From Candidatus Zipacnadia bacterium (GTDB lineage: Bacteria; Armatimonadota; Zipacnadia; Zipacnadales; Zipacnadaceae), in the NCBI GenBank assembly GCA_029820565.1, contig JALGUR010000003.1, positions 3,304-67,303 on the forward strand: a DNA stretch of 64,000 bases, read 5' to 3'. The notes under the pieces are model-generated. The model was not told the DNA's origin and searched no databases. It saw only the letters and a program-made list of their open reading frames with translations. Below, one piece after another: positions 10,539 through 13,258 of this stretch (position 1 is the stretch's first letter; each line of letters starts with the position of its first letter). The translations under genes and the position numbers were made by a program.

Positions 10539-11828
10539 CTACGCCAAATTGTAGAACACATCCATCCCCCGGTACTCCGCCGTGTCAGCCAATTGCTCTT
10601 CAATGCGCAGCAGTTGGTTGTACTTGGCCACCCGGTCAACCCGCGAGGGCGCGCCCGTCTTTATCTGTCCGGCATTGGTAGCCACCGCCAGGTCAGCGAT
10701 AGTAGTATCATCAGTTTCGCCGCTACGATGCGAGACTACCGCCGTCATCTTCGCCTGGTGGGCCATCTGGATCGCCGCCAGCGTCTCGGTCAGCGTGCCA
10801 ATCTGGTTGAGTTTGATGAGCACCGAGTTAATGGCCCCTTCCTTGATGGCCCGAGCCAGGATTTCGGTGTTAGTCACTGTCAGGTCGTCGCCCATTATCT
10901 GCACCTTATCCCCCAGTCGCGCCCGCAACTTCGGCCAGTTTTCCCAGTCATTTTCGTCCAGGCCATCCTCAATAGATATGATGGGATAGCGGTCGCACAG
11001 GTCCGCATAGAAGTCAATCATCTGGGCCGAACTAAGTTCTCGGCCTTCTCCTGCCAGCACATAGTTGCCGCTATCGCGGTCAAAAAACGAACTGGCCGCC
11101 GGGTCCAGGGCAATGCGGATGTCCTCGCCCAGGCCATAGCCGGCCGCCTCCACCGCTTCCCCGATGCTCTGGAGGGCCTCCTCGTTGGACTTAAGATTCG
11201 GCGCAAAGCCCCCTTCGTCGCCCACCGCCGTGTTCAGCCCTCGGCCCTTGAGCACTTTTTTCAGAGAGTGGAACACTTCGGCACCCATCTGCAGCGCCTC
11301 AGCAAAGCATCCCGCTCCGAGCGGCATAATCATAAACTCCTGGAGGTCCACATTGTTGTCGGCATGCTCGCCGCCGTTGAGGATATTCATCATCGGCACG
11401 GGCAGCACCGTGGCTCTTACTCCGCCGATGTACTGATACAGGGGCAGTCCCAGGGCGGCCGCCGCAGCCTTGCACACTGCCAGGGATACCCCAAGAATCG
11501 CATTGGCGCCCAATTTGCTCTTAGTGGCCGTGCCATCTAACTCACACATCAGCCGGTCAATCGCCACCTGCTCGGTAGCGTCCCAACCCACTATTTCCGG
11601 CGCAATTTCGTCATTGACATTGGCTACCGCCTGCAATACTCCCTTGCCGCCGTAGCGCTCGGCGTCGCCATCACGCAATTCCAGGGCTTCGCGCTCACCG
11701 GTAGAGGCCCCGGACGGCACGGCCGCCCGCCCAATAGCCCCACAGGCCAATTCCACATCCACCTCCACGGTCGGATTACCCCGCGAGTCCAGAATCTCTC
11801 GGCCGAATACTGACTCTATAGTCGTCAT
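10539..11828 (-). CDS. eno: Enolase
   Basis: 429-aa ORF with [38 protein letters not shown] and [17 protein letters not shown]. These are canonical enolase motifs. Confidence 0.97.
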
Positions 11829-11840
11829 TGCCTTTCCTCT

Positions 11841-13091
11841 CTAAAGTGGCATTCCCTCATAACTGAAGATCTCTGGCTTTGAATCCAACTCCAGCGCAAT
11901 TACGGTGTCGTGCGGGTCGGGCGGATGCTCCGGCAATCCTTTAATAACCACTCTTCCCCGGTCCTGCGCTACGGTCACTTCTTGCCCGGTCTTCAAAACG
12001 GCGCCCCCTCTGACTTTATTCTTTACCCCGGTCATCGCTGCTTCCTCGCCCGCCCAGCGAAAAATGTGAAAATATACTTCCTTCCCCTTAGCAGTGACCT
12101 TCCCAATGCTATTCCTGCCAAAGAATTTTGGCATCCTTTCTGAACCATATATGGACTCCCCATTGATCTTCATCCATTGGCCCATCTCAGTGAGCCGTTG
12201 GACGAATTCCTCCTGGATAGCGCCGTCGGGCTGGGGACCTACGTTCAGGAGATAATTCCCGCCACCGCTGGCACAATACACCAGATACTGAATGAGTTGG
12301 GTTGTGCTCTTCAGATTCGGGTCATATTTGACATAGCCCCATTTATCCCCAATGGTCATATTTGACTCCCAGCATCTTCCTGGTTGTGATATTACCACAT
12401 ACTGCTCCGGGGTATCAACATCTTCTCCTAACCCCGAGCGGTTATTGATAATTATCTCCGGCTGCAGTTCTCTAACCGTTGCATTTAACTGTTGCGAATG
12501 CCACAACTCCGCAATTGCGGCAGATTCGGCATATTCAGTCAGCGTCCGGTGATATTCAACACCGGGTATCCATTCCCCGTCGTAAAAGAGGTAGTCAATC
12601 TTCCCATAATTCGTCATCAATTCCCTTACCTGCTCATGCGCCTGCCCCACCATTGCCTCAAAACTGTCGGGATATTCTTCTCGATTGAAGTAGCCGGGAA
12701 AGCGCCAGTCCAACAGTGAGTAATAAAAACCTATTCTCATTCCTCGTCTGCGGCACGCTCCCACATACTCCGCCACAAAATCTCTGTGGGTTCTGGTCTT
12801 CACCGCCGTAAAGTCACTGACTTGGCTATCAAATAGGCAAAACCCGTCATGGTGCCTCGTTGTCAGGACCATATATCTCATGCCGGCTGCTTCGGCTACT
12901 CGCACCCATTCATCCGCGTCAAACCTAACCGGATTGAACTCATCAGCCAGTTTGCCGTACTCTTCCTGGGGAATCTTCTCCTCATCCATAGCCCACACGC
13001 CTCGGCCCAGGATCGCATAAAGCCCCCAATGGATAAACATACCAAACCTGGCTTCATTGAACCATTCCGGTATTTCCTTGTGATTGCTCAT
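11841..13091 (-). CDS. Alpha-L-fucosidase (GH29)
   Basis: 416-aa ORF with [11 protein letters not shown] and [13 protein letters not shown], which are GH29 signatures. Its stop lies 12 nt upstream of the eno ATG. Confidence 0.9.
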
Positions 13092-13258
13092 TGATTTTCC
13101 CCTTTTGGCCTCGCCGACGCTTCACCCACCCAACAGACCTCGGACCGCCCGGCCGCCCGCCCAACAGCCCCACAGACCAATTCCACGTCCACCTCCACGG
13201 TCGGATTACCTCGCGAGTCCAGAATTTCTCTGCCTAATACCGACTCTATGATTCTCAT
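13088..13258 (-). pseudogene. Duplicated, diverged 5' fragment of eno, readable as a 56-codon leader ORF coupled to the fucosidase gene
   Basis: 13141-13258 aligns to eno 11711-11828 with about 89% nucleotide identity over the first 108 nt (manual alignment). The fragment translates to [36 protein letters not shown], against [36 protein letters not shown] for eno. It then diverges and ends at a TGA that overlaps the fucosidase ATG (ATGA at 13088-13091). Confidence 0.8.

Follow-up and report, generated by a model that had tools for sequence, protein, structure and literature searches.

The present analysis concerns a stretch of 64,000 nucleotides (nt) from a Candidatus Zipacnadia bacterium (assembly GCA_029820565.1, contig JALGUR010000003.1, positions 3,304-67,303 of the forward strand), which is referred to as the window in the following. 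All coordinates are window positions unless another contig is named. On its minus strand lie, in this order, a gene for pyruvate phosphate dikinase (PPDK), a PNPOx-like gene, an open reading frame (ORF) of 56 codons, a GH29 alpha-L-fucosidase gene, the enolase gene eno and an MttB-family gene. The 56-codon ORF starts as a diverged copy of the eno 5' end, called the remnant here. This remnant is best explained as what is left of the 5' end of another eno allele that had diverged from the first, i.e., as a pseudogene fragment and the scar of a recombination event. Annotations should mark the 56-codon ORF as a pseudogene fragment of eno instead of listing it as a gene.

The remnant (13135-13258, minus strand) copies eno at positions 11705-11828. 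In a repeat search the two share 124 nt at 87% identity, which is far above chance, and they form the sole long direct repeat within positions 8400-14000. The alignment is in register and ungapped from the ATG on, with 109 identities in 126 nt overall and 12 mismatches in the first 108 nt, exactly the number given in the original prediction, which was made from the letters of the DNA. Its other structural details were confirmed as well. The TGA of the ORF (13090-13088) overlaps the ATG of the fucosidase gene (13091-13089), giving ATGA, only 12 nt separate the fucosidase stop from the eno ATG, and the sequence AGAGGGG, a ribosome-binding site, precedes the ATG of the remnant. Residues 4-39 of the 56 amino acids (aa) match positions 1-36 of the 131 positions of Pfam Enolase_N (E 5e-10). 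The remnant does not encode an enolase, since the domains are incomplete and the conserved VPSGAS motif is destroyed (GRSEVC). The enolase-like start had been recognized correctly, but the drift into unrelated codons that was said to follow it is not found. The homology to eno runs on to about nt 123 (codon 41) and ends at a recombination junction, the S42C change of the remnant being the junction itself. The last 18 nt before this junction are the most diverged stretch of the repeat. An assembly artefact was considered and rejected, as the same arrangement is present on the independently assembled JGI contig L081, which is 99.9% identical to the window, and contigs of other runs span both junctions.

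Table 1. Features of the eno locus in the window (empty cells: nothing given).
Feature	Position	Strand	Basis
MttB-family (trimethylamine methyltransferase-like) gene, between eno and the 172-aa gene	9056-10495	-	
eno, intact enolase gene, 429 aa	10539-11828	-	Pfam Enolase_N and Enolase_C, full length
Fucosidase-eno junction: fucosidase stop TAG 11841-11843, 12-nt spacer 11829-11840, single TTA 11842-11844 as the empty site of the 219-nt element of sister strains	11829-11844	-	Alignment with L247
GH29 alpha-L-fucosidase gene, 416 aa	11841-13091	-	PF01120, 3e-89, residues 3-312
56-codon ORF: codons 1 to about 41 eno 5' fragment, remainder fucosidase leader read through	13088-13258	-	Pfam and alignment
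Fucosidase leader, 44 nt, with its own Shine-Dalgarno sequence AAAGGGGAAAA, common to type A strains without the remnant	13092-13135	-	X1, X4 and X7 contigs
Proposed illegitimate recombination junction, 7-nt microhomology	13136-13142	-	Type A versus eno versus remnant
816-nt block: last 5 PPDK codons, 65-nt spacer, PNPOx, 182-nt spacer, eno nt 1 to about 122	13137-13952	-	Contig joint 13136 to 13953
Eno-type 5' region, 66 nt upstream of the remnant ATG	13259-13324	-	Weakly similar to the PPDK-eno spacer (3' part) in L242 and L245
Terminator-like GC-rich hairpin 13366-13330 (about -21 kcal/mol), then U5 13329-13325, 3' of PNPOx	13325-13366	-	ViennaRNA fold
PNPOx-like gene (general stress protein 26 type), 143 aa	13441-13872	-	Pfam PF01243
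PPDK, pyruvate phosphate dikinase gene; in relatives the conserved upstream neighbour of eno	13938-16655	-	Pfam and synteny
Resident MITE-like element, about 220 nt, GC 44%, between the S4-domain gene and PPDK	16680-16900	-	blastn, nhmmer

No relatives with an eno more than 75% identical were found in the GTDB genomes or the JGI metagenome contigs, the nearest named genomes being Armatimonadota-type metagenome-assembled genomes. Closer relatives were found via a protein-cluster database. The window eno protein is 87-89% identical to the eno of these syntenic relatives. Three of them (L242, L245 and L246), on contigs syntenic with the window, show the gene order gidB-parAB-surA-mazG-S4-PPDK-eno-172aa-360aa-DUF3160, with eno directly after PPDK at a distance of 85-92 nt. 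PNPOx, the fucosidase gene, the remnant and the MttB-family gene are lacking in all five syntenic relatives, and PPDK lies directly before eno in four of them. The fifth, L250 (eno 88%), has two unrelated small genes of 186 aa and 92 aa in the gap (3036-3861 of its contig), and the product of the 92-aa gene shows a weak sigma-70 region-4 match. Because L250 carries two other genes there, the gap between PPDK and eno can be regarded, from the gene orders compared, as a hotspot for gene gain in this group. Its fillers differ by lineage and include PNPOx, the fucosidase gene, the two small genes and a MITE-like element described below. The original prediction had proposed to compare the eno locus of related genomes for the presence or absence of the fucosidase gene. 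The gene is lacking in the five syntenic relatives and present in the closest strains (type A) and in a sister haplotype of the window.

Type A strains are known from Logan contigs of three marine-sediment runs (X1, X4 and X7), which were aligned to the window. Their identity to the window is 95-97% in the fucosidase gene and eno and 97-98% in PPDK. In type A, PPDK is followed by about 105 nt (15 nt of it unread) and then by the fucosidase gene, without PNPOx and without the remnant. In X1 and X7, individual contigs of 233-234 nt (depth about 10) follow the window at 13012-13136, continue with 75 nt of unlike sequence and then enter the PPDK 3' end at 13953-13985, so that their joint from 13136 to 13953 is a skip of 816 nt. 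The flanks are well conserved, with 33 of 33 positions identical on the PPDK side (X1) and 121-122 of 125 on the fucosidase side. The X4 contig (240 nt) matches 12940-13136, runs for 43 nt into the same unlike sequence and ends short of PPDK. PNPOx and the flank specific to the remnant had zero coverage in the type A runs even at 85% likeness, and the coverage of PNPOx was zero in X1, X3, X4, X6 and X7. The window carries an 816-nt block (13137-13952) where type A has 75 nt, i.e., an insertion coupled to a deletion. Read from PPDK, the unlike stretch of type A consists of AAT AAT CCC CGC TGA, TTCGTAGCACCCGGC, the 15 unread nt, the hairpin CCCCTGCCGCTGCCCAGTGGCAGCAGGGGC and CTGTTGGG. The PPDK tail specified by AATAATCCCCGCTGA is AQINNPR*, which the relatives have too, whereas the tail in the window is AQIEHPR*. 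The last four PPDK codons (13941-13952, minus strand; EHPR* versus NNPR*) and the stop together show differences at 7 of 15 nt, and they mark the left edge of the block.

At the right edge, the similarity to type A ends at 13136, where the homology to eno also ends. The heptamer GGGGCCT is common to eno (nt 117-123) and to the sequence upstream of the type A fucosidase gene, and it lies exactly at the end of the eno homology. It is found within CAGGGGCCTGT in type A and within CCGGGGCCTCT in eno. The sequence of type A is ...GCAGCAGGGGC followed across the junction by CTGTTGGG, that of intact eno CCGGGGCCTCTACC and that of the remnant CCGAGGTCTGTTGGG; written across the junction, type A has ...GCAGCAGGGGCCTGTTGGG, intact eno ...GTCCGGGGCCTCTACCGG (nt 113-130) and the remnant ...GTCCGAGGTCTGTTGGG. 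The microhomology now reads GAGGTCT in the remnant, corresponding to two later transitions.

Such an arrangement resembles homology-facilitated illegitimate recombination (HFIR). HFIR joints typically show a microhomology of 3-10 bp with homology on the other side, and the insertion is coupled with a deletion (PMC3240628). HFIR is known from the natural transformation of Streptococcus pneumoniae, Acinetobacter baylyi and Pseudomonas stutzeri, and from E. coli (Escherichia coli) in the case of conjugation (PMC3240628 and references therein). In the case studied here, near-identical homology is found at one end and a 7-nt microhomology between otherwise unrelated sequences at the other. 816 nt replace 75 nt, and the size of the block is within the range of about 1 kb reported for HFIR. 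On the PPDK side, the identity of 33 of 33 nt up to 13953, the 97-98% further in and the 7 of 15 differing positions beyond would fit a homologous crossover near the PPDK 3' end with an unsampled donor. In contrast to the published cases, the exchange is deduced here from natural variants in uncultivated sediment bacteria and not seen by experiment, and the deletion is much smaller than the insertion. The feature itself is real. It is probably an HFIR-type joint that left a gene-fragment pseudogene, which is a known kind of event, with an outcome comparable to that of icd/icdC at e14 in E. coli.

We consider it likely, on the basis of the structures, the junction and the microhomology observed in these contigs, that a PNPOx-type block was imported into a type A chromosome by HFIR and left the eno 5' fragment as a scar. 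The ancestral local order in this species-level group would have been PPDK-eno. One lineage, type A, would have gained the fucosidase gene between PPDK and eno, and another, which we infer from the block and which is unsampled, would have had PNPOx in the same place. DNA of the PNPOx type, covering the end of PPDK, all of PNPOx and roughly the first 120 nt of its eno, would then have recombined into a type A chromosome, by a homologous crossover in the PPDK 3' end on the left and by illegitimate joining at GGGGCCT on the right, at a distance of 45 nt upstream from where the resident fucosidase gene starts. The window's own eno would never have been disrupted. The imported piece would have brought along the terminator-like hairpin downstream of PNPOx, followed by the 5' region of a foreign eno, including ribosome-binding site and ATG, and transcription and translation starting in this region would now run into the fucosidase leader.

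The direction of the transfer can be judged from the divergence of the parts. The PPDK 3' part of the window differs from type A by 2-3% and the fucosidase gene and eno by 3-4%, compared with 9-13% between the remnant and eno and 7 of 15 nt in the PPDK tail. The block appears more foreign than both flanks, because the remnant and the PPDK tail diverge more than PPDK, the fucosidase gene and eno. A PPDK identical to type A up to 13953, combined with a diverged tail and a diverged remnant, favours the import of a PNPOx block into a type A backbone. The substitution pattern of the remnant would fit two functional alleles that had diverged before the truncation. The ratio of non-synonymous to synonymous changes (pN/pS) between the remnant and eno is about 0.2 over the central 33 codons and 0.27 over codons 2-36, most differences being synonymous and at hypervariable sites, and values of 0.22-0.27 correspond to P = 0.02-0.04 against pure neutrality. 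As proof of a foreign allele this signature of purifying selection was rejected, and it lends weak support at most, as the bias loses its significance when synonymous change in the intact copy is taken into account and the polarization with four relatives is ambiguous.

Several points weigh against this reading. A parent with PNPOx beside eno was not found, and no such adjacency occurs among the PNPOx homologues searched. All that is known of type A comes from a single study, in the form of Logan contigs of 233-240 nt, and the direction of the transfer rests on divergence estimates that were obtained from short contigs in which strains are mixed. As just noted, the excess of synonymous differences is not significant if the intact copy has changed at synonymous sites as well, as estimated from the substitution counts. 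The non-synonymous changes of the remnant cluster at both of its ends (codons 2-3 and 37-41), which is not fully explained. No sigma-70 promoter site upstream of the remnant passed a consensus scan. Finally, the same product would have arisen if the recipient had been of the PNPOx type and had acquired a type A fragment with its anchor in eno.

This reverse direction, which corresponds to the second possibility offered in the original prediction, is the most serious rival, although we regard it as rather unlikely. A PPDK-PNPOx-eno genome would have taken up a type A fragment, reaching from the fucosidase leader through the fucosidase gene into eno, anchored in eno and joined at GGGGCCT. The remnant would then be the displaced 5' end of the resident eno, and the working eno would have a 5' part of the donor type. 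It predicts exactly the same junction and microhomology, and the upstream sequence of the remnant is indeed still of the eno type, at the place after PPDK that synteny predicts. A mosaic eno is hinted at by the nucleotide identity to L242, which rises toward the 3' end, from 77-87% in the 5' half to 83-93% in the 3' half. The protein segments, however, show no clear mosaic pattern. PPDK is identical to type A at all 33 positions at the breakpoint and 97-98% identical further in, whereas the tail and the remnant are far more diverged, which speaks against a PNPOx-type recipient. Remnant and intact eno are equally distant from all relatives, which also argues against a displaced resident copy.

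The original prediction favoured an insertion of the fucosidase gene into the eno 5' region. In such an in-situ insertion, a fucosidase cassette would have duplicated a target of about 140 nt, the upstream copy decaying neutrally thereafter, perhaps with occasional gene conversion. Direct repeats do flank the fucosidase gene. In the composition profile its GC content of about 49-50% is lower than that of the flanks (about 58-60%), and its nearest homologues outside its own cluster, 63-75% identical, belong to other phyla and lie in other contexts. The overall counts do not reject neutral decay when synonymous change in the intact copy is allowed for, by the same estimate. Nevertheless, an insertion of this kind is very improbable. 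The closest strains have the order PPDK-fucosidase-eno with the same leader and without the fragment, and in type A this leader continues into a non-eno hairpin and PPDK. As type A has 60 nt of unique sequence there, it cannot be a deletion derivative of the window arrangement. Furthermore, the break in the eno homology coincides with the microhomology to the type A sequence, and PNPOx is absent together with the remnant. Precomputed Pfam calls show no transposase or integrase within about 8 kb on either side, and to our knowledge a target duplication of 120-140 nt fits no known transposition mechanism. The repeat is thus not a bracketing target duplication; the segment that differs between the strains is the 816-nt PNPOx block, which ends inside eno. 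Recombination with a related donor, which had been offered as a second possibility, agrees with the diverged but related eno allele, except that the imported piece was probably the PNPOx block and not the fucosidase gene.

A comparable outcome is known from E. coli K-12, where icd and icdC lie on either side of the e14 and phage 21 prophages (PMC13626634, citing Hill et al., 1989). In both cases an intact housekeeping gene lies on one side and a diverged pseudogene fragment of an end of the same gene on the other, and the differences between the copies are largely synonymous or conservative. However, icdC is a 3' fragment that results from the site-specific integration of a 15-kb prophage with an integrase and its own gene end. 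Here the fragment is a 5' fragment, a single gene of 1.25 kb lies between the copies, no integrase is nearby and the joint is a microhomology instead of an att core. The present case shows that a gene fragment beside an accessory gene can be misread as insertion with target duplication, when it forms the rear end of another block that was imported. The case is probably a natural HFIR-type exchange between related strains of uncultivated marine-sediment bacteria at base-pair resolution. The junction sequences of both parents can be deduced, and cases that allow this are rare except in transformation experiments in the laboratory. The kind of event is ordinary, but this example is unusually well resolved.

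Further information on the fate of the remnant comes from the sister haplotype, represented by the contigs L247, L248 and L253 from two other samples, which are about 99% identical to the window with the same gene order. The decay of the fragment is directly visible there. It carries six extra substitutions, all of them non-synonymous, compared with 2.1 expected from the synonymous divergence of the neighbours (P = 0.02). An 8-nt deletion shifts the frame and leaves an ORF of 42 codons, with its stop at a distance of 30 nt from the fucosidase ATG on the upstream side. The six substitutions and the deletion all fall on the sister branch, and five of the six together with the deletion lie within about 30 nt (L247 7905-7935, equivalent to window 13167-13195), which looks like one complex mutational event and not like independent hits. 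Judged by this comparison, the eno fragment is not maintained and behaves as a pseudogene. In sample 3300033141, the assembly breaks in the region of the remnant and the fucosidase leader, although the end of L253 and the start of L248 have about 113 nt in common; the strains in this sample may thus be heterogeneous at this place.

The sister strains also differ between the fucosidase gene and eno. In the window, the 12-nt spacer holds the eno Shine-Dalgarno sequence GAGGAAAGG. In the sister strains, 219 extra nt (L247 9252-9470) lie between the fucosidase stop, which is TAA there, and the eno Shine-Dalgarno sequence. The tight junction noted in the original prediction is therefore polymorphic. 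Because the sister ORF is frameshifted and the 219-nt element is present there, both the ATGA overlap and the 12-nt junction are specific to the window haplotype. The element of L247 is 77.5% identical to the copy at 16680-16900 of the window. A third, weaker copy lies at 21800-22022 on the plus strand, upstream of a FolC-like ORF (nhmmer E = 6e-14). Thus, at least three copies with 66-78% identity are located upstream of PPDK, of the FolC-like ORF and, in the sister strains, of eno.

Filled and empty sites were found for both well-resolved copies, each of which is bounded by TTA. The spacer between the S4-domain gene and PPDK has 35 nt with a single TTA or TTG in L245 and L246 and 35 nt plus a TTA-flanked element of 221 nt in the window. 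At the fucosidase-eno site the element is present in L247, L248, X4 and X7 and absent in the window, in X1 (99%) and in X6 (95.5%). Contigs of X4 and X7 have loose ends at 11844 that read into the element, and those of X1 and X6 span the tight junction. Both states occur in strains that are 4-5% diverged, and the difference may go back to an insertion or to a precise excision. The repeat of about 220 nt looks like an insertion element similar to a miniature inverted-repeat transposable element (MITE), which may carry a promoter. As MITEs, it is AT-rich, multi-copy and TTA-bounded, with empty sites in relatives and in the window itself, and it has subterminal hairpins (fold z = -2.5). A -10-like box, TGAATAAT, lies about 20-35 nt upstream of the downstream start codon, beside the Shine-Dalgarno sequence of the downstream gene. 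It differs from MITEs in that the ends of the two copies inspected show no terminal inverted repeats but a direct subterminal TGATGA motif. Moreover, a transposase was not identified, the identity between the copies does not exceed 66-78%, and its mobility is deduced here only from the filled and empty sites. The relatives with 87-89% eno identity lack the element, and a search against Rfam gave no match for it.

The probable expression of the locus can be judged from these structures. In the original prediction, the fucosidase gene was thought to use the eno expression signals through a translationally coupled leader peptide. About 66 nt of eno-type sequence with its own ribosome-binding site and ATG are indeed kept upstream of the fucosidase gene, so that the use of eno signals is plausible, but the ATGA-coupled leader is not conserved in the sister haplotype or in type A. 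Transcripts entering the fucosidase gene probably start in the eno-type upstream sequence (13259-13324), where we presume a promoter. The hairpin downstream of PNPOx, which precedes it, was not flagged by a simple terminator scan. As the window eno lacks the promoter-like site that the element carries, it is probably co-transcribed with the fucosidase gene. In the window haplotype the remnant, the fucosidase gene and eno probably form one compact co-transcribed unit. Within the whole 3.7-kb region, the coding strand has its best sigma-70-like site in the interior of the fucosidase gene (12389-12418, minus strand). It consists of TTGATA and TAATAT at a distance of 18 nt with an upstream TG, about 560 nt before eno, and could provide eno with an internal promoter.

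Translational coupling via overlapping stop and start codons (ATGA) is known from bacterial operons, for example from genes of the trp operon. The window resembles these cases in that the TGA of the remnant overlaps the ATG of the fucosidase gene and a plausible ribosome-binding site is present (ATGA 13091-13088). It differs from them in that the upstream ORF is a pseudogene fragment and the overlap is lost even in a 99%-identical haplotype. L247, L248 and L253 are frameshifted, and type A has no ORF at this place. Any coupling is deduced from the codon overlap. It would be possible but is evidently dispensable, because the fucosidase gene has its own Shine-Dalgarno sequence, the leader shows no significant structure and the ORF is broken in the sister haplotype. 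A riboswitch or another structured RNA in the remnant or the leader was rejected as an explanation, since neither the window nor L247 gave an Rfam match and the fold z was 0.32.

Whatever its origin, the remnant ORF might be a selected leader, translated from the eno ribosome-binding site and terminating at ATGA, that couples the translation of the fucosidase gene and prevents polarity on eno. The ORF is open over 56 codons in the window and ends exactly on the fucosidase ATG, and the window haplotype has no promoter-like element upstream of eno, so that eno should need transcription from upstream. All changes that break the ORF are, as described above, on the sister branch. We find such a leader doubtful, as the ORF is frameshifted in a sister that is 99% identical and missing in type A, where some strains have the same tight fucosidase-eno junction. 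The fucosidase gene does not depend on it for a Shine-Dalgarno sequence, and the RNA shows no significant structure. A chance ATGA overlap after about 15 out-of-frame codons is expected in roughly a few percent of cases, and with two haplotypes known there is no statistical power. A further step, which we regard as improbable and still a little less likely than a selected leader as such, is that the imported eno promoter, ribosome-binding site and ATG were co-opted, so that uninterrupted translation from the remnant through the fucosidase gene to eno, by way of the ATGA overlap and the 12-nt spacer, would protect expression of the only eno copy after loss of the element. If this were true, a recombination scar would have become an essential leader. 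The idea of a regulatory role is at most possible, and for the window haplotype only.

The fucosidase has a full-length GH29 profile match (PF01120) with a conserved core and 153 invariant columns in an alignment with 8 homologues. Its C-terminus, ...YEG[IM]PL, is native and common to the homologues. No signal peptide is evident. Between the window and the sister haplotype, pN/pS is 0.08 for the fucosidase gene (10 synonymous and 3 non-synonymous changes) and 0.04 for eno, which points to purifying selection acting on both genes. A second eno N-terminal fragment was not found at any of 167 other eno loci, and homologues of the fucosidase, PNPOx or MttB genes were not found nearby at any of 167 eno loci. 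Likewise, none of 81 fucosidase loci has eno in its vicinity. The next-best homologue of PNPOx is 64% identical and not adjacent to eno. The remnant had been thought to tie the fucosidase gene to a glycolytic promoter. This tie through the remnant is not supported, as the fucosidase gene already lies between PPDK and eno in strains without it. A cytoplasmic fucosidase thus sits between two glycolytic genes across the whole strain group, whether the remnant is present or not.

Two observations concern the region downstream of eno. The MttB-family gene is a second accessory gene beside eno, missing at this place in L242-L246, and a repeat search found no repeat flanking it. The divergence profile between the window and L247 is patchy, without a clear block boundary. 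Its segment 7000-7499, near an alignment gap by the 362-aa and DUF3160 genes, has 78 substitutions in 500 nt and may be a hypervariable or recombined patch.

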